A DNA stretch of 32,000 bases from Halogeometricum borinquense DSM 11551 (GTDB lineage: Archaea; Halobacteriota; Halobacteria; Halobacteriales; Haloferacaceae), in assembly GCF_000172995.2 (NCBI RefSeq), contig NC_014729.1, positions 1,470,001 through 1,502,000 of the forward strand, in the 5' to 3' direction. Below the pieces are notes generated by a model that was given only the letters and a program-made list of their open reading frames with translations, searched no databases and had not been told where the DNA came from. The position numbers and the translations under genes were made by a program. This document shows, piece after piece, positions 1 to 20,879 of the stretch. Positions within the stretch are counted from its first letter, which is position 1. The number at the start of each line of letters is the position of its first letter.

Positions 1-3000
1 ACCCGATTCCGCTCGACGCGCAGTCGGAACTCGGGCAGGAACACTTCTTCGATACGTTCCGACTGGAGGACGACAGCCCGTTCGCCGACCTCGTCACCGG
101 GATGATGGACCTCCTGCATGAACTCCGGGACGAGAACGAGGCGAAGTTCGTGAAAGGCGCTTACGACTTCTGGGAGGCGACATACGCCGACGAGCCGGAC
201 GAGGTGCCGAACTCATGGGACCCGTTCATCAACGGGAAGCAGTCGCTTCGAGACTTCATGTTCTGTCTGGAGAGCGGACACGCGCTTCTCGCACGGCTCC
301 TACTAGCGAAGGCCACCGAGGACCACGATTTCTTCGCGGGCACTGGATACGATGGGATGGACGACTACTTCCGCGGGTTGCAGGGCTTCGGCGACACCAT
401 CAACCTCGATGCATTCCCCGTCGCGGCGGACGACCTCATCGACGATATGCAGGAGCAGTTAGTCGAAGGGCTGTTTCAGGACGACATCTTCATCTGGTGG
501 ACTGACGGATACAGAGAGCAGATTGATACTCAGCACGCGAGCGGGCCGAGCCGGTTCGAGGACGTAGCACGCGGATCCGGTGACGTGGAACGTGTCAGCG
601 AGACTACTCGGGACCGCTTCAGCCGCGCCGTCGCCGAGGTGTTCTTCAACGTCCTACGGTTCGACTTCCAAGACGTGGAGGGCGATCTCCTCGGGGACCT
701 CTACCAGCGGTATTTCGACCCGGAGACGCGCAAGGCACTCGGCGAGTTCTACACGCCACAGCCGGTCATCGACTACATCATGGACGGCGTCGGCTACGAG
801 CGCGGCGTCTCGAACGAGCGACTCATCGACCCGTCGTGTGGGTCCGGGACCTTCCTCGTGGAGGCCGTCGAGCGGTACATCACCGACGTGGAGAACTTCG
901 AGGACAACCCCGACTGGGAGGAGCATCTACGCGACCTCTGTACCCGCCCGCGCATTGTTGGGCTTGATATACACCCGTTCGCTGTTCTGATGGCACAGAT
1001 TCGCTTCGTGGTCGCTATCCTCCCGGCGTATCGAGAGGCGAAAACGCAGAATCCCGAGTTTACCATTCGGCGGCTCCCAATCTACCGAACCGACACCCTC
1101 CGAAACGAGCGGGAACTGACGGGCGCGGACCTCGGCGACGACGGCACCCGGCAGATGACCTTCGACGCGATGACCGAGGACGACCAAGACGTACGGATTC
1201 CCGTCCCGCTTCCGGTGGAAGTAGACGAGGACGAGGTCGCCGAAACCGAGGACGGCTTCCTCGTGCGCCGGGTTCGGATGCCGCTGTTCGACACGATTCA
1301 GTTGGAGACTGGCGTCAAGAACTTCGGGGAGTATTTCGCGGCCCTACAAGGCGTCTTGGACACCGTCAAGGACCATATGGCGCTGGCCGAGGAATTCGGC
1401 GGCGACTTCGACTGGGAATACAAGAGTGGGCTGGAGGAGCGCATCAACCAGCACACGTCGCGGGACTACTCTGGGGTAGAGGAGTTCTTCACACCCTACG
1501 TGAACGATATGCTGGAGAACGTGCGCTACCTGAAGGAGGAACACAACGACGGACGGCTGTTCAAGATGTTCGAGGACACCGTGCTCGCGCTCGTCGTGAA
1601 GAACTACATGGAGTACGACTACGTCGTGGGGAATCCGCCGTATGTGAATATCAAATATATCTCCGATACCGCGCAAGAACGCTACACCAGACTATACGAT
1701 TCAGCATTTGGGCGTTTTGACCTCTATGTTTTATTTATTGAGCGTGGACTGGAGATGCTAACTGAGGACGGCGAGTTAGGTTACATTACCTCGAATAAGT
1801 TTGCCCGTGCAGAGTATGGGAGAGAAATCAGGCGGTTAATCAGTTCGGAGTATTCCTTGGCGGAGTACATCGACTTTGGCGATACAGAGGTATTCAAGGA
1901 CGCAACTAATTACCCCTGTATTCTGTTTGTTGACCGTGATAGAAATAGAAAAACCGTCCCATATGCAAAAATTAGACGAGAACAAGATAATATCCTCGAT
2001 GTAGTTGCATCTCACTTAGGTAAAGAAAACTACCTCTCAGACGGGATTGAAATCTCCCGATATCCGTCTGAGAGATTATCCGAAGAAGTGTGGACATTCA
2101 CCCCGGAACCGGTTCGTGAGGTTGTGACGAAATTACAACAGAACGGAACCACCACAGTTGAAGAAGCGTGTCTTGGGGTTCGACAAGGTGTCTCTTCTGG
2201 TGGGGATGATGCGTTTATTGTGTCCCCCGAATATGCAGACCAGAAGGAGTTAGAGAACGAATTGCTATATCCTCTCATCCGTGGGGAGAATGTTCGTCGC
2301 TGGATTGTTGATTGGGAGGAAGAAGTCGCTATATACCCATACGATGACGACGGCGAGTTGGTTGACTTTTCCGAGTATCCGAGCGTGAAATCTCATTTAG
2401 AGGACCACCGTGAGTATCTCGAAGACCGATATTGCGTAAAAAAAGGAGGGAAGGGAATCTATGAGTACGACGGCCCAAGGTGTAAGTCTGTTTTTGAGGG
2501 AGATTTTAGAATTCCTGTTCCAGATATGGCGACTGAAAATCAATTCTCCTATGCTGACGGGTACAACTGTTTCAAAAACACCGCATACGTACTTACTTTT
2601 AATGATGAACAACCCTATTCGGAGTTGGAGTTGCTTGGTTTGTTAAATAGTGCTGTGTCGGAGTTCTATATCAAACAAAAAAGTCCATTCTTGAATGACC
2701 AATATTTCCGATATAAGAGCCAGTACATTGACCCAATACCACTACCCGCAGAAACCGACCGTATTTCTTCAGTCGTTGACGATATTCTTGCAGTTGAGAG
2801 ATTGGGTCGAAAGGTCGAGAATTTCCCAGATTCATATATTGACGAATATGACGGCGAGGTGGCGTATATCACATACGAGTGGCAAACGACTCGGAAACCA
2901 GTAAATGCAGAAATTAATACCAACGACGACGGTACAATATCGGTACAAGCAGGACGAACCGATAGCATCGTAGATGCGGCGATGCACTCTGAGGACAACG

Positions 3001-3263
3001 AGGCCCGCAAGCGCCGGGCCGAGTACGTTTATGCGGCAGTAGACGGCTGCAACGTCAAGAGCGGCAAAGAAATAACTATTCCAATCCCCCGAAGCGATGA
3101 CGGCGTTGTGGACCTGCTGGACCGGCTTGAAGCCGACCGCGAGGAAGTCCGGCAGACCGACATCGAAGACCTCGAAGCCGAGATTGATGACGCGGTCTAC
3201 GACCTATTCGACCTGACCGAGGACGAGCGCGAAGTCGTAGAGGACTACCTCGAAGTGTTCTGA
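1..3263 (+). CDS. N6-adenine DNA methyltransferase, Eco57I/type IIG- or BREX PglX-like (gamma-class); 5' end probably outside window
   Basis: ORF track gives 102..3263, but the same frame is open back to nt 3 (PIPLDAQSELGQEHFFDTFRLEDDSPFADLVTG precedes the first Met). Motif X-like EFYTPQPV, motif I DPSCGSGTFL (828-857) and motif IV NPPY (1632-1643) are present. DLYVLFIERG...GYITSNKF follows, then a long target-recognition region. The acidic tail LFDLTEDEREVVEDYLEVF is typical of this enzyme family. Confidence 0.85.
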   Translation, partial: PIPLDAQSELGQEHFFDTFRLEDDSPFADLVTGMMDLLHELRDENEAKFVKGAYDFWEATYADEPDEVPNSWDPFINGKQSLRDFMFCLESGHALLARLLLAKATEDHDFFAGTGYDGMDDYFRGLQGFGDTINLDAFPVAADDLIDDMQEQLVEGLFQDDIFIWWTDGYREQIDTQHASGPSRFEDVARGSGDVERVSETTRDRFSRAVAEVFFNVLRFDFQDVEGDLLGDLYQRYFDPETRKALGEFYTPQPVIDYIMDGVGYERGVSNERLIDPSCGSGTFLVEAVERYITDVENFEDNPDWEEHLRDLCTRPRIVGLDIHPFAVLMAQIRFVVAILPAYREAKTQNPEFTIRRLPIYRTDTLRNERELTGADLGDDGTRQMTFDAMTEDDQDVRIPVPLPVEVDEDEVAETEDGFLVRRVRMPLFDTIQLETGVKNFGEYFAALQGVLDTVKDHMALAEEFGGDFDWEYKSGLEERINQHTSRDYSGVEEFFTPYVNDMLENVRYLKEEHNDGRLFKMFEDTVLALVVKNYMEYDYVVGNPPYVNIKYISDTAQERYTRLYDSAFGRFDLYVLFIERGLEMLTEDGELGYITSNKFARAEYGREIRRLISSEYSLAEYIDFGDTEVFKDATNYPCILFVDRDRNRKTVPYAKIRREQDNILDVVASHLGKENYLSDGIEISRYPSERLSEEVWTFTPEPVREVVTKLQQNGTTTVEEACLGVRQGVSSGGDDAFIVSPEYADQKELENELLYPLIRGENVRRWIVDWEEEVAIYPYDDDGELVDFSEYPSVKSHLEDHREYLEDRYCVKKGGKGIYEYDGPRCKSVFEGDFRIPVPDMATENQFSYADGYNCFKNTAYVLTFNDEQPYSELELLGLLNSAVSEFYIKQKSPFLNDQYFRYKSQYIDPIPLPAETDRISSVVDDILAVERLGRKVENFPDSYIDEYDGEVAYITYEWQTTRKPVNAEINTNDDGTISVQAGRTDSIVDAAMHSEDNEARKRRAEYVYAAVDGCNVKSGKEITIPIPRSDDGVVDLLDRLEADREEVRQTDIEDLEAEIDDAVYDLFDLTEDEREVVEDYLEVF

Positions 3264-3275
3264 GCAAATACCGAT

Positions 3276-4460
3276 TCAGAGCATATCATCGGTTGTCTCC
3301 GCGTTCCGTAACTTTCCGAGCGTCGTGTACTGGAGTGACTGCGGATACTTCGACTCAAACGGAACCGGGTCTTCGAGTTCGTAGAGTGAACCCGGCTCGA
3401 ACATGATGACCTTCTTTCCCTCCGCAATCTTCGCTCGGTCCTTGTAATCCAACGGCTCTCGCATCAACTCCGCCTCATCGGGTTCGACCACGTCACTCAC
3501 CTTAGCGAAGTATTTGACTTCTCGAACGTCTCCAGTGACGTACATTGCCACGTAGTCGAAGTCGCTCCCAACCCGAACAAACCCCCACGCTTCGTTCTCT
3601 TTGAGAAACGGAAGTCCAGACTCTTTGGTCGGGAATACGGCTACGCGGGCATCTGAATCCCCATTGATTTCTTTTCGGGCAATCGTACCCGCGACCCGGT
3701 TCTCCAGTGGTTCTATCTCGTCGGCGGCGTCATCGGATTCCGGTTCGTCATCTTCTTCCGACTCTCCGGGCGGTTCCTCGCTGACGAAGTGTCGCTGTTC
3801 ACGGAGTACGGAGACGAGATTCTGTACGAACTCCCGAGACTGTTCCTCAAGGTCTATAGTTAAGTCGCCCACCTCGTTCTCCACGGTCTCAGTGACGGAC
3901 TCGGTGACGCTGTCTTCGTTTTCTTGCAGGTGACGAATCGCCCGGTTCGTCTGCGCGACCTGTTCCGCTACCTCATCGGATTTCCCCGACCGGATCGATT
4001 CCTTGGTGAGCAGTTCCAGCACGTCTGGATTCTCGGCGAGGTCATCGAGGTCGAACTGAACGACGGACACCTCCTCGCCGCCGTTCCGGTGGCGGTTCTT
4101 GGTCAAGACCTCAAAGGACTTCCCGTTGGTCAGAATCCCCCAGTCTACATCGAGTTCCTGTCTCATGTAACTCCGCAATTGCTGGACTTCGTCGTCGGTG
4201 AGCGTAGACCGGACAGGCTTCGCTTCAACGAACACTACCGGAGAGTCCCCCACAAGAAGTGCGTAATCGACGTGGGTACTTCCTGATGCCATCGGGATAG
4301 TGTATTCGAGGGCGACTTCGGTAGAGTAGAGGTTCCATCCGAGAAGTTCGAGAAACGGTTGGACGAGTTTGACCTTCGTGTTCTCCTCGTCCATCTGCGG
4401 TGACGACTCGATGAGTTGCTGACACCGCTGGACGTGCTCGTCTATCTCATCCCTGTCCAT
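3276..4460 (-). CDS. HsdR-N-type PD-(D/E)xK nuclease-domain protein fused to an acidic linker and an unassigned C-terminal domain
   Basis: ORF track gives 3276..4469 (TTG). I prefer the ATG at 4460 (MDRDEIDEHV...). The N-terminus has the type I restriction HsdR N-terminal pattern: PFLELLGW, HVDYALL, VVFVEAKP, QLRSYM, WGILTNG. It is convergent with the methyltransferase, with a 12-nt gap. Confidence 0.8.
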   Translation of the reverse strand: MDRDEIDEHVQRCQQLIESSPQMDEENTKVKLVQPFLELLGWNLYSTEVALEYTIPMASGSTHVDYALLVGDSPVVFVEAKPVRSTLTDDEVQQLRSYMRQELDVDWGILTNGKSFEVLTKNRHRNGGEEVSVVQFDLDDLAENPDVLELLTKESIRSGKSDEVAEQVAQTNRAIRHLQENEDSVTESVTETVENEVGDLTIDLEEQSREFVQNLVSVLREQRHFVSEEPPGESEEDDEPESDDAADEIEPLENRVAGTIARKEINGDSDARVAVFPTKESGLPFLKENEAWGFVRVGSDFDYVAMYVTGDVREVKYFAKVSDVVEPDEAELMREPLDYKDRAKIAEGKKVIMFEPGSLYELEDPVPFESKYPQSLQYTTLGKLRNAETTDDML

Positions 4461-4483
4461 TAGAGACAATGGGACAACGTGTC

Positions 4484-4492
4484 TACTAATAT
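4484..4492 (-). promoter_or_regulatory. TATA-like box for a leaderless transcript of the 3276..4460 gene
   Basis: The minus strand reads GATATTAGTA, centred about -28 from the ATG at 4460. This is the spacing expected for haloarchaeal leaderless promoters. Confidence 0.3.
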
Positions 4493-4826
4493 CATGGTGA
4501 AAAGGGATGACAGCGGCTAACGCTGTCCCGAAGGTACCTTTTTAATCCTTTTCCTATTTTGCATCCCTTCGGGGGACAATATAGGCAAAACAGGCGTCTT
4601 AGCCCCCTCACCGAAGGCGCGCTTAGAACGCTGTCTCGGAGGAGTCCTCGCGGTTCGAATACGTCATACGCATTCGAAGCAGGGAACGGAGCGAAGCGGA
4701 GTGACTGCGGTTCGAATCCGGTCTCGCATACAACGTTTTGACAGAGCTATCAGCAAGCGCGGACGCTACTCGCACTGCCGCTAGACTTGCTATCTTACGC
4801 TTTTGACCCGAAACTGCGAACCGTGT

Positions 4827-4840
4827 CTGACGCGCGTCAG
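4827..4840. repeat. perfect 14-bp palindrome ctgacgcgcgtcag
   Basis: Read directly. The arms are ctgacgc / gcgtcag with no spacer, about 60 nt upstream of dacZ. Confidence 0.9.
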
Positions 4841-4872
4841 CCGATATCACCACCGAGAACGTCCCACAAGTC

Positions 4873-4879
4873 TTTTTTT
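4873..4879 (+). promoter_or_regulatory. T7 run at -29..-23 of dacZ; TATA-like element for a leaderless mRNA (could alternatively terminate an upstream RNA)
   Basis: tcTTTTTTTc lies 23-29 nt upstream of the ATG at 4902. Confidence 0.3.
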
Positions 4880-4901
4880 CACCGCAGTTGACCAATGACT
4901 G

Positions 4902-5717
4902 ATGGTGGCGTTATCGGACCTCCTCGACAATGTCGTGGCGGATGTGGACGCGTTGTTCATTTTCTCGCCGAGTAGTTCGTACTACGAACGGTTCGCAGAC
5001 GCCGACCTCGACACACCAGTTGTGGTGGTCGCGTCCGAGAACGCCGTCGATGCGGAAACGTACATCGAACTCCCCTTAGAGTTCGACAACGTACGCGACC
5101 GCATCCGCTTCGGTGTCGAGGGTGCCATGGAGAACGGTGTCGTCGAGGAGGACGACATCGTCGCTTGCAACGTCGCGGTCTTCGGCGGCGACCAAGACGC
5201 CGTGATTCGCGTCCGCGTCACAGAGGAGATGCGGTCCGGCATCTACGACCTGTTCGCTAACTCCCGTGCGGACCCGAGCGTCATCCGCAACGTGTTCGAG
5301 GTGGCGATTGAACTCGGCAAGAAGGGACAGAAGGGGAAACCGGTCGGCGCGTTGTTCGTCGTCGGTGACGCCGGAAAGGTGATGAACAAGTCCCGACCGC
5401 TGTCGTACAACCCGTTCGAGAAGTCTCACGTCCACGTCGGCGATCCCATCGTGAACGTGATGCTCAAGGAGTTCTCCCGGTTGGACGGTGCGTTCATCAT
5501 CTCCGACTCGGGGAAAATCGTCAGTGCCTACCGCTATCTTGAACCCGCGGCGGAGGGGGTCGATATTCCGAAGGGCCTCGGCGCGCGACACATGGCCGGT
5601 GCGGCGATCACCCGCGACACGAACGCGACGACGATTGTTCTCTCGGAGTCGGACGGCCTCGTCCGAGCGTTCAAGGGCGGACAGATGATTCTGGAGATTG
5701 ACCCGGAGGACTACTAA
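4902..5717 (+). CDS. dacZ: diadenylate cyclase DacZ (c-di-AMP synthase; N-terminal pyruvate-kinase-C-like domain plus DAC domain)
   Basis: DAC-domain motifs are present: GALFVVGD, LDGAFIISDSGKI, GLGARHMAGAAIT and TIVLSESDGLVRAFKGG. The 271-aa size and two-domain layout match archaeal DacZ. Confidence 0.9.
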   Translation: MVALSDLLDNVVADVDALFIFSPSSSYYERFADADLDTPVVVVASENAVDAETYIELPLEFDNVRDRIRFGVEGAMENGVVEEDDIVACNVAVFGGDQDAVIRVRVTEEMRSGIYDLFANSRADPSVIRNVFEVAIELGKKGQKGKPVGALFVVGDAGKVMNKSRPLSYNPFEKSHVHVGDPIVNVMLKEFSRLDGAFIISDSGKIVSAYRYLEPAAEGVDIPKGLGARHMAGAAITRDTNATTIVLSESDGLVRAFKGGQMILEIDPEDY

Positions 5718-6568
5718 TGATCCCCGCGGGTTCCATGCTTTTGATGCAGAGCGGCGACCGTACTCCCACGTCCGGCCCTGCAACGAGTCCTGCAGACTCG
5801 TTCCTCGCGGAACTCTACACGCTTTTTCCTCGGGATGTGTGGTTCGCGCTGATCGTTCTCGTCGCGGGTGTCGCCGTCGCTCTCATCCTCGGGACGCTCA
5901 CACGTCGTGTGCTGACCGGTCTCGGCGTCCCCGAAGCTATCGAGGGAACGGCGTTCGAGCGGACCGCGCGGAACTTCGACACTTCGACGGTCGAAATCCT
6001 CGGCTGGTTGGTCCGGTATTTCGTCGTCGGCATCGCTATCCTCGCCGCGTTGTCCATCGCCAACGTGAACTACGCCGACCGGTTCTGGAGTCAGGTCGTC
6101 GAGTTCCTGCCGATGTTGTTCTTCGCGGTGGTCATCCTCATCGTCGGCATCGTCGTCGGCGACAAGGTTGAACTGCTGGTCGCAGAGCGACTGCGCGGTG
6201 TCAAACTCCCGCAGATCGGTATCATCCCTGCGGCCGCGAAGTTCACCGTGTTCTATCTCGCGTCCCTCATCGCCCTCTCGCAACTCGGTGTTGCCACCAT
6301 GGCGCTCGTCATCTTCCTCGCCGCCTACCTGTTCGCCATCGTGTTCCTCGGCGGCATCGCCTTCGCGGATATGCTCAAGTCGGGTGCGGCGGGCACGTAC
6401 CTCCTCTTGACGCAACCCTACGCCATCGGCGACGAAATTCGCGTCGGCGACACGGGCGGTATCGTCCAAGAGGTGGACTTGTTCGTCACGCACGTCGAGG
6501 ACGACGGCGAGGAGTACATCGTCCCCAACCGGAAAGTGTTCGAGGAAGGGATCGTCCGTCTCCGTTGA
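5717..6568 (+). CDS. MscS-family mechanosensitive channel protein (short form)
   Basis: Several TM helices are followed by the MscS beta-domain signature PYAIGDEIRVGDTGGIVQEVDLFVTHVEDDGEEYIVPNRKVF. The start overlaps the dacZ stop (TAATG, 5715-5719). Alternative in-frame Met codons lie a few codons downstream. Confidence 0.8.
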   Translation: MIPAGSMLLMQSGDRTPTSGPATSPADSFLAELYTLFPRDVWFALIVLVAGVAVALILGTLTRRVLTGLGVPEAIEGTAFERTARNFDTSTVEILGWLVRYFVVGIAILAALSIANVNYADRFWSQVVEFLPMLFFAVVILIVGIVVGDKVELLVAERLRGVKLPQIGIIPAAAKFTVFYLASLIALSQLGVATMALVIFLAAYLFAIVFLGGIAFADMLKSGAAGTYLLLTQPYAIGDEIRVGDTGGIVQEVDLFVTHVEDDGEEYIVPNRKVFEEGIVRLR

Positions 6569-6686
6569 CCGGAGTACGGTGGCTCAGTACCTATACTAAT
6601 TCTGTCAAATAACCCAACAAAATCGACGGCAACTCGCCCGACGGCGTTTAAACTGGCTGTGTCGTTGAAATATCTCAAACCCAGAG

Positions 6687-6716: not shown

Positions 6717-7754
6717 GTGGAGTGGAGTTCCGACGACGACAAACACCGCCTCGATGGTGACGTCTACCGCGAAGCGTTTCGAAGCACCGAGGCACCGGCC
6801 CTCATCGCCGACCCGAACTTCGTTATACGTGACGTCAATCCAGGTTGTCTGGACCTTCTCGGCTACGAATCGGGCGAACTCGTCGGAGAATCCGCGGCGA
6901 CGATTGCGGGTGACGACCGCATCTACGAGGATGTCGTCGAACATCTCTCCCGCGGCGAGACGTGGACCGGGCGGTTTATCGCGCAGACAAAGGCGGGCGC
7001 GAACGTGTTCGGTCGCGGATTTGCGGCTCCCATCATCGCCGACAGTACCGTCGAGGGGGTTATCGCTATCTTCGTCGATACGGCGAAACAACAGCAGTAC
7101 GAGAACGCCTCAGAGGTGCTGAACAGACTCCTTCGACACGACCTCCGGAACGAACTCAACGTCATGTACGGCCACATCCAGCGCGCACAGTCGGAGTCGT
7201 CCATAGACGAGGTCACCGAAAGTCTGGAGAAAGCACAGGACAAAATCCTCGAAATCGTCCACAAATCCGAGCGAGCGCGCGACCTACGGAATCTCTTAGA
7301 GCGGTCGTACAGCGCGTCGAATCGCCCCGTCCGTCTCGACATCGTGCTCAACAATACGCTGGTCGAGGTGATGCAACAGTACCCCGACGCGGAGTTCAAA
7401 TTCCAGGTGTTTCCTGAGGTCATCGTCCGCGCCGACGACCTGTTAGCTACCGCCATCGAGGCGGTGTTGGAGAACGCTGTCACGCACAACGACGCCGATG
7501 ACCCGGTCGTCCGCGTCTCTGTCGAGGTTCACGACGACCACGTCATCCTCGCCATCGCCGACAACGGACCGGGCGTTCCCGAGTCCCAGCGTGATCTCAT
7601 CTTCGGCCGGGAGGAGTACGATCAACTGCACCACGGGACGGGAATCAGCCTCTTTTTCGCTGACAGCGTTTTCGACAGTTACGATGGGGAGATCTGGGTC
7701 GAGGACAACGACCCGCGCGGTGCCATTTTCAAGATGCGACTCGAGCGTCCCTAA
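6717..7754 (+). CDS. PAS-domain sensor histidine kinase
   Basis: A PAS-like N-terminus (ALIADPNFVIRDVNPGCLDLLGYESGELVG) is followed by the H-box LLRHDLRNELNVMYGH. The HATPase_c motifs ENAVTHN, IADNGPGVPE and GTGISL are present. GTG start; no adjacent response regulator. Confidence 0.85.
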   Translation: MEWSSDDDKHRLDGDVYREAFRSTEAPALIADPNFVIRDVNPGCLDLLGYESGELVGESAATIAGDDRIYEDVVEHLSRGETWTGRFIAQTKAGANVFGRGFAAPIIADSTVEGVIAIFVDTAKQQQYENASEVLNRLLRHDLRNELNVMYGHIQRAQSESSIDEVTESLEKAQDKILEIVHKSERARDLRNLLERSYSASNRPVRLDIVLNNTLVEVMQQYPDAEFKFQVFPEVIVRADDLLATAIEAVLENAVTHNDADDPVVRVSVEVHDDHVILAIADNGPGVPESQRDLIFGREEYDQLHHGTGISLFFADSVFDSYDGEIWVEDNDPRGAIFKMRLERP

Positions 7755-9985: not shown

Positions 9986-10143
9986 ACCCTCACGACCTCA
10001 GCACGAGAGTGTAAAGGTTGCTCTTCTCGCAAGTGATTCTGGGCACAGTCGTGTACATGATCTCCGCGCTAAGCGACCGCCACAGTCGGGGAGACGGCTT
10101 CCGGAACCCCGAGATTCTTGTCACCATCTGTTCACGTACGCGC

Positions 10144-12192
10144 ATGGATTCCCCTCCTGAAACCGACCAACGGGACACCGGCTACACCCTCCACGACGAC
10201 GACATCGACGACCCATATCTATGGTTAGAGGAGACCGACGACGATGTGTCCGCGTGGACGGCGGCGCAAAACGACTACGCGGACGACTACCTCGATTCGC
10301 TGGACATACGCGAGTCGCTCCGGCCTCGCTTCGAGGACCTGGCACGGACGACGACGTACATGCCCGTAAAGGCTCGACAGAACGGCTACTTCCAGCGCGT
10401 CCGCGATGCCGACGCCGACCATCCCGTCCTTACTTTCCGCCCAGGCTTAAACGAAGACCGCCGCGTCCTCGGCGATCCGAACGAGATGAGTGACGACGGG
10501 AGTGTCTCCGTCGATTGGTACGTTCCGAACCCCGACGGTAGTCTCGTCGCTTACGGCGTCGCGGAAGGCGGTGACGAACAGTACGATGTTCGTGTCCTCG
10601 AAACCGAATCGGGTGAGACGGCCGAGGAACTCACCGATGTCGGCCGTACCGGTCCGTGGTGTTTCGGCTGGACGGATGATGGTTTCTACTACCTGACTAC
10701 GGGGTCGGTGGGCGACGGCGGCCAGTTAGAGAAGGAAGTCTGCTTCCATGAGATTGGAACCGACCCGGCGGACGATTGGACGCTCGCCGACGAGTTCTCT
10801 ACGCAGACGTGGCCACTCGTCGAGACGGACGCCGAGAGCGACTACGTTATCCTCGGTCACACTGAAGGCTGGGAGCGGACCGACCTCTACTACGCCGAAC
10901 TCGGATCCGACGAACTGCATCCCCTCGTCGTCGGCGAGGACGCTCTCTTCGAACCGACGCTTGACGGGAACGACGTGTACGTGAACACCTCGCTCGATGC
11001 GTCGAACTACCGCGTGGTCAGCGTATCTCTCGATGCTGTGGACCCGAGTGCGTCGCCAACGGACGTGGGCGAGTCGTCAACGGACCCGAACAAGCCGTTC
11101 GAGACGGTGGTTGCAGAACGCGACGATGCCATCGCACAGGAACTCGACGTAATCGGTGACCGAATCGTCGTGAAGTACCTCCGCGACGCCGTCCACGAAC
11201 TCGTCGTCTTCGATGCCGATGGCGAGCAGGATGAGACGGTTCCACTACCGGGACGCGGGTCGGTCGCCTCTTTCGGCGGCGAGGACGACCTGTTTTTCAC
11301 CTACGAATCGTTCACCGAACCGCCGTCGATCCGACGCTACGCCTTCGGCGCAGACGAGACGACAGTCGTAGATCAGCCGGATATTTCGACCGAGACAGAC
11401 CTGACTGTCACCCAAGACTGGTTTGCATCCGCGGACGGAACCGAAGTTCCGGCGTTCGTCGTGCGCCGCTCCGACCTCGAATGCGACGGTGACAACCCTG
11501 CGGTGCTGTACGGATACGGCGGGTTTGAGAACAGTCTCACCCCATTCTTCGGCGAGTTCTTCCTCCCGTTCCTCGAATCGGGTGGGGTCCTCGCCGTCGC
11601 CAACCTTCGCGGCGGCGGCGAGTTCGGCGAGTCGTGGCACCACGCGGGTCGCCGCGAACACAAACAACGGGTCTTCGATGATTTCTTCGCCGCCGCCGAA
11701 CACCTCGTCGAGAATGGCTACACCTCCACAGAACGACTCGCCTGCTTCGGCGGGAGCAACGGCGGCCTTCTGGTGGGTGCGTCGATCACTCAACGACCAG
11801 ACCTGTTCGCGGCGGCCGTCTGCAAGGTTCCACTCCTCGATATGCTTCGGTTCCACACATCGCTTCTCGGTGAGACGTGGACCACCGAGTACGGGTCGCC
11901 CGACGACCCCGAAGCGTACGAGTACATCCGCGAGTACTCGCCGTATCACAATGTCGAAGAACGCGCGTACCCGGCCGTTCTCTTTACGACTGGCGAAAGC
12001 GACTCTCGCGTGGACCCGTTCCACGCCCGAAAGATGGCCGCACGGATGCAGGCCGCACAATCGGGAGCGGATCCGATCCTCCTGAAAACTCGGTCGCAGA
12101 CGGGCCACGGATCCGGCAAACCCGTTTCAAAAGTTGTCGAGGAGAATCTCGACGAGTGGTCGTTCCTCGGCGACCAACTGGACGCATTCTAG
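10144..12192 (+). CDS. prolyl oligopeptidase family serine peptidase (S9A)
   Basis: DPYLWLEE is near the N-terminus, followed by a beta-propeller region. The catalytic domain has the nucleophile motif GGSNGGLLVG, then DSRVDP and GHG. The ORF-track start 10018 (TTG) is trimmed to the ATG at 10144 (MDSPPETDQ...). Confidence 0.9.
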   Translation: MDSPPETDQRDTGYTLHDDDIDDPYLWLEETDDDVSAWTAAQNDYADDYLDSLDIRESLRPRFEDLARTTTYMPVKARQNGYFQRVRDADADHPVLTFRPGLNEDRRVLGDPNEMSDDGSVSVDWYVPNPDGSLVAYGVAEGGDEQYDVRVLETESGETAEELTDVGRTGPWCFGWTDDGFYYLTTGSVGDGGQLEKEVCFHEIGTDPADDWTLADEFSTQTWPLVETDAESDYVILGHTEGWERTDLYYAELGSDELHPLVVGEDALFEPTLDGNDVYVNTSLDASNYRVVSVSLDAVDPSASPTDVGESSTDPNKPFETVVAERDDAIAQELDVIGDRIVVKYLRDAVHELVVFDADGEQDETVPLPGRGSVASFGGEDDLFFTYESFTEPPSIRRYAFGADETTVVDQPDISTETDLTVTQDWFASADGTEVPAFVVRRSDLECDGDNPAVLYGYGGFENSLTPFFGEFFLPFLESGGVLAVANLRGGGEFGESWHHAGRREHKQRVFDDFFAAAEHLVENGYTSTERLACFGGSNGGLLVGASITQRPDLFAAAVCKVPLLDMLRFHTSLLGETWTTEYGSPDDPEAYEYIREYSPYHNVEERAYPAVLFTTGESDSRVDPFHARKMAARMQAAQSGADPILLKTRSQTGHGSGKPVSKVVEENLDEWSFLGDQLDAF

Positions 12193-19534: not shown

Positions 19535-20879
<1,345 letters not shown>

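Follow-up and report, generated by a model that had tools for sequence, protein, structure and literature searches.

A tRNA-Leu-associated island of Halogeometricum borinquense with a type IIG restriction-modification gene and a candidate modification-dependent nuclease

Structure and boundaries of the island

The DNA considered here, which we call the window, is a stretch of 32,000 nucleotides from the haloarchaeon Halogeometricum borinquense DSM 11551 (NC_014729.1, positions 1,470,001–1,502,000 of the forward strand), and our subject is a pair of genes at its left-hand end. The first, on the + strand, has a frame that is open from window base 3 to a stop codon at 3261–3263, a run of 1087 codons that reaches the left edge stop-free. 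The second, an open reading frame (ORF) at 3276–4460 on the − strand, encodes a protein of 394 amino acids counted from ATG (ADQ67121.1/WP_006054354.1). We refer to it as NUC, a nuclease–reader fusion and candidate modification-dependent endonuclease. The genes lie tail to tail, with 12 nt (3264–3275) between the convergent stop codons, exactly as described in an earlier note made from the letters of the window alone. Contig AOHT01000014 of the same strain (locus L002) matches the window exactly over the 14.5 kb that overlap the fetched locus, and strain CP050274 (locus L001) is a close match.

The two genes are flanked by copies of a single tRNA. On the left the boundary is an intact tRNA-Leu(UAG) gene, located by ARAGORN at window positions −1018 to −933. 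Towards the right-hand end, on the + strand at 4600–4672, tRNA-Leu(UAG) is present again, almost complete but decayed, as the remnant of an attachment site; this copy aligns with tRNA positions 7–85 and retains the anticodon loop. Repeat comparison revealed a second fragment of the tRNA-Leu 3' end at 4707–4728 on the same strand, GCGGTTCGAATCCGGTCTCGCA, and matching copies of the tRNA fragments are present outside the window between the intact tRNA-Leu and the start of the large gene (L001 15150–15184 and 15253–15287). Both remnants at the right lie in the 441 nt (4461–4901) that separate NUC from dacZ (4902–5717). The earlier note had described this spacer, which it put at about 430 nt, as gene-free; it does lack an ORF, but it holds the tRNA remnants. 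Only when they are set beside the intact gene to the left of the window does their origin show; searches of the spacer itself with ARAGORN, and with Rfam at the gathering threshold or at relaxed E-values, find no tRNA and no known RNA family.

An empty version of the site is found in a Halogeometricum-like metagenomic contig (L138), which encodes a DacZ that is 94% identical and has the same gene order on both sides but no island. Between tRNA-Leu and dacZ this contig has only 365 nt of tRNA-fragment scars. Its positions 6110–6556 correspond to window −1399 to −933 and its positions 6923–7299 to window 4824–5200. Since homology with L138 breaks at −933 and at 4824, where collinearity resumes, the island is about 5.8 kb in length and holds exactly two genes, with 4461–4823 forming its right-hand end. 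The suggestion in the earlier note of an accessory island is thus borne out, and the tRNA-Leu boundaries and the empty site confine it to these two genes. The empty site itself carries two partial tRNA-Leu 3' ends (6645–6668 and 6775–6800), which are scars of repeated integration and excision at a hotspot. Clean empty sites occur in close relatives (L136–L138), and Haloferax volcanii and Halopelagius inordinatus have other small genes at the tRNA-Leu/dacZ site.

There is no integrase in the H. borinquense island. Related islands at the same tRNA do possess a tyrosine integrase, two of them with both genes (L019 and L021) and one with the large gene only (L066). Given the lack of an integrase and the presence of several decayed tRNA fragments, the island is probably immobile now.

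The type IIG enzyme

Window positions 1–3263 of the + strand cover codons 165–1250 and the stop codon of the large gene, which starts 489 nt to the left of the window (ADQ67120.1, 1250 amino acids). The full-length ORF could be read in L001 and L002, and is uninterrupted and identical in both strains. In the earlier note this gene was taken for a methyltransferase paired with a separate nuclease. That assignment fails, for the 164 residues encoded to the left of the window carry P61-D62...E77-F-K79...GVLTNG, the PD-(D/E)xK signature of the HsdR-N/MmeI-N nuclease family; scanned alone, the N-terminus matches Pfam HSDR_N with 26 bits, and the nuclease motif spans residues 61–109. Because the missing N-terminus carries this conserved motif, we consider the large gene to be self-contained and predict from its sequence that it encodes a complete type IIG restriction-modification enzyme, with nuclease and methyltransferase in one polypeptide. 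The idea that NUC supplies the missing nuclease of a bare methyltransferase can be discarded, since the large protein has a conserved nuclease of its own.

The remainder of the protein matches the Pfam families Eco57I (104 bits), N6_Mtase and TaqI_C (residues 921–1078). Methyltransferase motif I, DPSCGSGTF, which binds S-adenosylmethionine, is formed by residues 440–448 (828–854, + strand) and is kept in all aligned family members. Alignment places motif IV, NPPY, the catalytic motif of N6-adenine methyltransferases, at residues 708–711 (1632–1643, + strand). The nuclease motif and motifs I and IV are conserved in aligned close homologues from six other genera, and a seventh, distant relative retains the core residues. 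The protein therefore combines, as a type IIG enzyme should, intact motifs I and IV with a nuclease and a C-terminal recognition domain. Among solved structures, the methyltransferases CamA and BseCI resemble the half of the protein that comprises the methyltransferase and recognition domains.

Between motifs I and IV the Eco57I methyltransferase domain is split by an insertion of about 140 residues, largely acidic, so that the 171 positions of the Eco57I profile are stretched over residues 482–795 (window 954–1895). The insertion is 68–96% identical in the closest homologues and on that account should be functional.

The two public gene models disagree. GenBank ADQ67120.1 has the full 1250 residues, whereas the RefSeq model WP_241432315.1 begins at an internal ATG (window 102–3263), gives a protein of 1052 amino acids and drops the conserved nuclease. 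The first 100 residues of the longer model are 72–98% identical in the closest homologues, which belong to three other genera, and this strong conservation indicates that the long model is correct. The annotation of the methylase is corrected accordingly.

Sequence conservation along the protein is markedly uneven. Residues 1–750 are 65–89% identical to homologues, residues 780–1120 only 18–44%, and the best match to the latter among about 80 relatives is 58%. This hypervariable target-recognition region (1848–2870, + strand), which includes the TaqI_C match (2271–2744, + strand, by Pfam), has a G+C content of 44–46% and a G+C content at third codon positions (GC3) of 49%. The coincidence of the variable block with the low-G+C block points to a conserved scaffold with an imported recognition domain, probably swapped in from a low-G+C source and giving a rare specificity. 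The same coincidence limits the proposal, made in the earlier note, that the island as a whole is low in G+C. Against a core of 61.8 ± 2.6% (1500-nt windows across 4902–32000), positions 1501–3000 stand about six standard deviations lower (45.6%, GC3 49%), but positions 1–1500 are the same as the core (61.3%, GC3 81%) and the NUC gene is at the lower edge of the core range (55.4%, GC3 68%).

We considered whether the large gene might be a decaying or domesticated type IIG gene that is now only a methyltransferase or inactive, without a restriction counterpart. The loss of the integrase and the decay of the attachment-site copies would be in keeping with such a relic, as would the RefSeq model of 1052 residues without a nuclease and the lack of detectable methylation from several of the type IIG genes predicted in Haloferax volcanii (PMC5867850). 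The gene itself does not look like a relic. The residues of the nuclease and of motifs I and IV are intact and invariant among closely related enzymes, the 1250 codons are uninterrupted and the same in two strains, the first 100 residues are well conserved in other genera, and the ratio of nonsynonymous to synonymous substitution rates (dN/dS) for the scaffold is 0.06–0.17 versus relatives. We regard decay or domestication as very improbable.

The nuclease–reader fusion

NUC consists of an HsdR-N-type PD-(D/E)xK head, a helical segment, an acidic linker and a PUA/ASCH-like β-barrel. The head corresponds to Pfam HSDR_N_2 (39.5 bits; residues 46–131, 4068–4325, − strand). Asp65, Glu79 and Lys81 (within 4215–4274, − strand) are invariant in 31 homologues, and so are Thr111, Asn112 and Gly113 of a GILTNG motif (4122–4139, − strand). 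The heads of NUC and of the type IIG enzyme belong to the same nuclease family. A Pfam scan of NUC detects the HsdR-N head only and no helicase domain, and the last ~150 residues are without a match; the description of an HsdR-N-type protein with an unassigned C-terminus in the earlier note was therefore accurate.

A sequence search of NUC against solved structures gave no match, and an AlphaFold2 model of the full-length protein from 31 close homologues had a predicted local distance difference test (pLDDT) score of 52, too poor for use. A model of the C-terminal domain (residues 252–393; 3282–3707, − strand) derived from a diverse alignment is far better (pLDDT 94.3, predicted TM score 0.88). 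The top match for this domain in Foldseek is ZmASCH from Zymomonas (E = 4e-4, probability 1.0, TM score ~0.5). Further matches include other ASCH domains, EVE and YTH domains, a restriction enzyme specific for 5-hydroxymethylcytosine (5hmC) and viral ASCH proteins. Our model thus supports the assignment of the domain to the PUA superfamily by fold, presumably as a reader of nucleic acid or of a modified base. The likeness is structural only; neither the C-terminal 148 residues nor any of 85 relatives match Pfam ASCH or EVE.

The C-terminal domain is rare. Among 1.84 billion representative proteins its 148 residues are represented by only 153 clusters at 50% identity. The domain is usually found at the end of proteins of 350–400 residues and sometimes stands alone. 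In 41 of 86 members scanned it accompanies HSDR_N_2, and other members are fused to GmrSD_C, Mrr_cat or PDDEXK_4, and one to an ADDT-like DNA base-modification domain. In this last protein (P0192, 556 amino acids) the partner resembles amino-acid:DNA transferase/glutamyl-putrescinyl-thymine pyrophosphorylase, a fusion that links the C-terminal domain to hypermodified DNA bases.

A nuclease combined with a PUA-type reader is an arrangement well established for modification-dependent (type IV) restriction enzymes (PMC6765204, PMC7897488). The catalytic residues of NUC are intact, a sensor domain is recognizable at the level of the fold only, and about 75% of loci are methyltransferase-free within 10 kb, consistent with an enzyme that works without a cognate methyltransferase. 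No haloarchaeal member or description of the NUC family was found in the literature searched. NUC was not found in the viral contigs of IMG/VR, and GenBank phages hold distant nuclease heads only. PADLOC assigns NUC to no known defence system; all that it matches, weakly (best E = 2e-6), are nuclease heads belonging to other models.

A second NUC architecture is present in L034–L039 and L041–L056 (match ~10001–11100 in each). The nuclease-plus-helical head is the same, 80–93% identical over residues 1–230 in L034–L039, and the C-terminus is an unrelated domain of ~130 residues that ends ..EF.G.W and has no Pfam match. To judge from such alignments, the sensor end of NUC appears to be exchangeable.

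Homologues of NUC are 70–94% identical across many haloarchaeal genera, with dN/dS of 0.03–0.12 versus relatives. Between genera the head is 87–96% identical at a synonymous divergence (dS) of 0.6–2 or above, with dN/dS of 0.03–0.05. Recent horizontal transfer is ruled out as the cause of this identity, because synonymous sites are strongly diverged. Broken copies in two genomes, both in or close to the tRNA-Leu slot, show that NUC is dispensable: it is split into three ORFs in Halobacteriales archaeon YIM A00010 (L032 9974–11166), and in Halorhabdus amylolytica (L029 8666–10915) it is truncated at residue 99 beside IS605 OrfB. L021 comes from the closest relative that shares a flank; its GCS2 is 83% identical but its NUC only 70%, which points to replacement of NUC by transfer. 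That NUC belonged to the ancestral core genes around dacZ is ruled out by the empty sites, by the pseudogenes and by its reduced identity in the nearest relative.

Two further occurrences deserve mention. In Natronorubrum bangense the chromosome and an 828-kb plasmid each carry a NUC locus (L023 and L024), and the two match in having the same neighbours and identical scan statistics. A 3-kb contig binned as Bradymonadaceae bacterium (L022) encodes a homologue of 64% identity, and is probably mis-binned haloarchaeal DNA or the product of cross-domain transfer.

The tight constraint raises the question of whether NUC has a role in defence at all. It could be a conserved nucleic-acid processing or repair nuclease, possibly directed to RNA through the ASCH-like domain, that happens to lie in a variable region. 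In the same species pairs NUC is 71–84% identical while the flanking core protein DacZ is 69–73% identical, and NUC keeps the same chromosomal slot in several haloarchaeal families; moreover, its best structural matches are ASCH proteins, some of them RNA-acting, and the weak PADLOC matches give no family-level assignment. Such a role sits poorly with the patchy distribution, the clean empty sites in close relatives, the pseudogenized or IS-disrupted copies and the apparent replacement by transfer indicated by L021. It also sits poorly with the location of NUC on integrase-bearing islands and megaplasmids, and with the exchange of the reader for an unrelated domain on a nearly identical head. 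In addition, the same reader occurs in fusions with GmrSD_C and Mrr_cat, the nucleases found in bona fide type IV enzymes. We consider a role outside defence distinctly unlikely.

Distribution and linkage of the two genes

We surveyed the neighbours of NUC within 10 kb at 56 loci, taking one genome per species, and the neighbours of the type IIG scaffold at 76 metagenomic loci, treating as well-flanked those with at least 1.3 kb on both sides. An Eco57I-type enzyme, belonging to one of three subfamilies, is present at 8/32 loci with the same NUC architecture and at 4/18 loci with the variant. From the other side, a NUC-family neighbour accompanies the type IIG scaffold at nine of the 76 metagenomic loci, at 5/24 with flanks of at least 1.3 kb and at 4/17 with flanks of at least 3 kb; the remaining 19 of the 24 well-flanked loci have the type IIG gene without NUC. 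On plasmids, a giant N6-methylase or TaqI_C protein lies beside NUC in two of four contexts.

In about 75% of loci NUC is alone amid housekeeping genes, and no other methyltransferase family recurs nearby. With the type IIG genes removed, a Pfam census of 123 near neighbours of NUC disclosed no other recurrent functional partner; beyond housekeeping genes, only integrases and TnpB occur more than twice. A protein of 590–655 amino acids, without a Pfam or PADLOC match, does recur near NUC and near type IIG genes (L006 12051–13970, L009 19217–21182, L012 12133–13713, L035 11632–13401, L054 1–1752, L068 3–1273 and L130 2336–4245), and may be further island cargo. PADLOC recognizes no known defence system among the recurrent neighbours that lack an assignment.

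The tRNA-Leu/dacZ hotspot exists in four states, with both genes (L001, L019, L021 and L028), with the type IIG gene alone (L060 and L066), with NUC alone (L010, L016, L018 and L020) and with neither (L138). Where the two genes occur together their orientation and spacing vary, being convergent, divergent or co-directional with 0–2 genes between. Tail-to-tail adjacency is seen in L001, L081, L026, L080, L125 and L120, and same-strand pairs with gaps of 33–93 nt in L046 and H6. L081 has the exact arrangement of the window, with both proteins ~81% identical.

These four states, the varied orientation and spacing, and the purifying selection on each gene when alone exclude an obligate two-component system. 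The pairing of NUC with the type IIG gene is recurrent but optional. The linkage counts and the four states at one hotspot show that the candidate defence module of the earlier note is not a fixed one. The linkage of nuclease and methyltransferase in other genomes, whose absence that note would have taken as a refutation, is recurrent and far above chance but lacking in about three quarters of loci.

A looser form of partnership deserves consideration, in which Eco57I-type type IIG enzymes have NUC-family proteins as accessories and the two move as a functional unit, an optional two-component cassette. The contribution of NUC might be a second catalytic centre that allows double-strand cleavage; alternatively, directed by the large enzyme, NUC might extend restriction to modified DNA. 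In support of such an arrangement, the giant Eco57I/TaqI_C-type enzyme is the only recurrent functional neighbour of NUC (12/50 genome loci, 2/4 plasmid contexts and 9/76 metagenomic loci), three or more enzyme subfamilies take part in the association, as do NUC proteins of either C-terminal architecture, the two genes are frequently immediate neighbours, whether tail to tail as in L081 and the window or on the same strand, and the two heads share a nuclease family. Each gene, however, lacks the other as a neighbour at roughly three loci in four, the tRNA-Leu hotspot included, and neither orientation nor spacing is fixed. The large enzyme has its own intact nuclease, and solo NUC is under strong purifying selection and so must work alone. 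A common vehicle, namely tRNA-targeting islands that bear integrases, explains the co-location without any interaction. We think this cassette unlikely. A more elaborate proposal, which we would also call unlikely, has the Eco57I-type type IIG enzymes of haloarchaea served by the NUC head-plus-helical module as a dedicated but exchangeable partner. The two would make up an optional, two-pronged cassette that travels as a unit on tRNA-targeting islands, one prong restricting unmodified DNA at specific sequences and the other cutting, under the guidance of the reader, whatever DNA evades the first through modification. The C-terminal domain would then be an unrecognized family of modified-base readers, and the PUA/ASCH-like domain would be interchangeable with the second, unrelated sensor domain.

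Proposed roles of the two genes

The explanation that we favour, with a probability of about 0.55, is that the locus is an integrase-less island remnant of ~5.8 kb with two self-sufficient, complementary defence genes that are often mobilized together. On this account they are two ordinary kinds of defence gene travelling together and not a new defence system. The analysis itself establishes the architectures of the genes, the integrity of their motifs, the fold of the barrel, the boundaries of the island, the occurrence of both genes across genomes and the purifying selection on them; enzymatic activity, what the reader binds and a role in defence are inferred.

The island is inserted at the 3' end of tRNA-Leu(UAG), between the tRNA and dacZ. 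Its large gene is predicted to encode a PD-(D/E)xK nuclease, a helical region, a γ-class N6-adenine methyltransferase and a TaqI_C-type target-recognition domain, in that order. From the mode of action of type IIG enzymes, the product would methylate one adenine in an asymmetric site on host DNA and cut unmethylated incoming DNA near its site. The barrel of NUC, to judge from the architecture, would read a modified base or some other unusual feature in foreign nucleic acid and license the PD-(D/E)xK head to cut, in the manner of type IV enzymes and with no need of a methyltransferase. The two activities would be complementary, one gene attacking unmodified DNA and the other attacking DNA that escapes by modification. 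Both genes are often carried by the same family of tRNA-targeting islands, and neither would need the other.

Several observations tell against this explanation. The ASCH-like assignment is a fold similarity of moderate strength (TM score ~0.5, 13–17% identity), and the ASCH structures that match best act on RNA according to the reference list of PMC7641849, where a ribonuclease is described. For a restriction nuclease, the very strong constraint on the NUC head is unusual, with 96% identity at a dS of 0.6. The type IIG enzyme may be silent, by analogy with the several in Haloferax volcanii, since a review lists N4-methylcytosine in CTAG as the sole modification for this strain (PMC11033074); no N6-methyladenine motif for the strain was found in the literature searched (PMC5867850 and PMC11033074). 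Finally, about 24% of the 21-kb NUC loci have an Eco57I-type enzyme. If, following PMC10609329, Halobacteria are assumed to have a little over one type IIG gene per genome, we estimate that about 1% would be expected for a random 21-kb stretch, and by that comparison the linkage is strongly enriched. Direct adjacency, which recurs with three enzyme subfamilies and both NUC architectures, is a pattern that a functional partnership, too, would produce. Our preferred explanation leaves two points unexplained, namely why the NUC head is so tightly constrained and why the genes repeatedly lie tail to tail.

What is new here is the reader domain of NUC, an unannotated family, together with an unexplained optional affinity between the NUC family and giant type IIG enzymes. 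An apparent pair of methyltransferase and nuclease becomes a complete restriction enzyme plus a second, independent nuclease, and a small integration hotspot, tRNA-Leu(UAG)/dacZ, is defined at which haloarchaea swap defence cargo. The compact sensor domain, absent from Pfam, is fused to four different nuclease families. Were it to read a modified base, it would be a new reader family for archaeal type IV restriction and a possible reagent for detecting the modification. The recurrent but optional pairing offers a tractable test case for deciding whether co-located defence genes cooperate or share a vehicle.

Flanking genes

The left flank was read over 10 kb and contains, beyond a short gap, tRNA-Leu and genes for a TFIIB-like protein, a CTP-transferase, TrmB, GCS2, fibrillarin and Nop. 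There are no genes of the bacteriophage exclusion (BREX), DISARM or type I systems in these 10 kb, so that this extension reveals no operon of the kind that the earlier note suggested might account for the methyltransferase. To the right of the island, window 4.9–14.5 kb encodes DacZ, MscS, a PAS kinase, PurD and an S9 peptidase, and 16–30 kb holds housekeeping genes and one TnpB. Both regions are free of type I, BREX and other defence genes, in agreement with the statement that no classical type I or pglZ/brx genes lie to the right. The TnpB ORF (19535–20584, + strand) has a Cas12f1-like TNB domain, belongs to an IS605-type element and lies in a local G+C dip (56–57%); it is unrelated to the island. 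Taken together, the earlier observations hold for the genes and fail in part for composition, and of their interpretation the island and the restriction genes remain while the bare methyltransferase and the fixed module do not.

Comparison with known systems

Family thresholds and neighbourhood rule out membership of the BREX, DISARM, type I, methylation-associated defence system (MADS) and MmeI families. With NCBIfam the large protein scores 178 bits against a cut-off of 400 for BREX_2_MTaseX and 55 against 500 for BREX-1, below the thresholds for PglX, and there is no pglZ, brxC or brxL within 10 kb on either side. The DISARM genes drmA, drmB and drmC (helicase, DUF1998 and PLD) are missing from the flanks. 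No type I HsdS or helicase-bearing HsdR is encoded within 10 kb, and the NCBIfam score for EcoAI R is 20 bits against a cut-off of 550. For MAD2 of MADS the score is 40 bits against 720. As regards the MmeI family, only a partial match to MmeI_Mtase is obtained (32.5 bits, 99 residues), with no match to MmeI_N, MmeI_hel, MmeI_TRD or MmeI_C at E ≤ 1.

The large gene has its closest parallel in the Eco57I/BpuSI type IIG enzymes. It shares with them the N-terminal PD-(D/E)xK nuclease, the γ-class methyltransferase with motif I before motif IV, the TaqI_C-type recognition domain and the same mode of specificity change, by exchange of the recognition region. It differs in the conserved acidic insertion of ~140 residues in the methyltransferase domain.

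Modification-dependent enzymes link a PUA-like barrel to a nuclease, have no cognate methyltransferase and often lie in defence islands (PMC6765204, PMC7897488). The two-module design of NUC is that of the EVE–HNH enzyme VcaM4I, the SRA-type enzymes MspJI and AbaSI and the 5hmC-specific PD-T4-3 enzyme. Unlike these, the sensor of NUC is an ASCH-like barrel that has no Pfam family, the nuclease head of NUC is of the HsdR-N/MmeI_N type and leads into a conserved helical segment, and the dependence of NUC on modification is predicted.

In the island of plasmid pEFER, BREX and BrxU have been demonstrated experimentally to give complementary protection against unmodified and modified viruses (PMC8565348). 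As in pEFER, an Eco57I-type adenine methyltransferase lies beside a type IV nuclease, here a candidate one. The H. borinquense island differs in having no BREX genes and in that its methyltransferase is part of a self-contained restriction enzyme, and NUC is of a different nuclease and sensor family from BrxU. Certain archaeal type I loci include stand-alone EVE or ASCH proteins, a recurrent arrangement in archaea in which these readers have been proposed to add recognition of modified DNA (Bell et al. 2020, PMC7641849). Here too a PUA-superfamily reader adjoins restriction-modification genes, but the reader of NUC forms one protein with a nuclease, and a type IIG enzyme takes the place of the type I system beside it.

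As a vehicle the locus resembles other tRNA-targeting islands in its insertion at a tRNA 3' end, the partial tRNA duplication at the far end, the existence of an empty site and the integrases of related islands. The H. borinquense copy departs from these in that it is integrase-less and has several decayed tRNA fragments.

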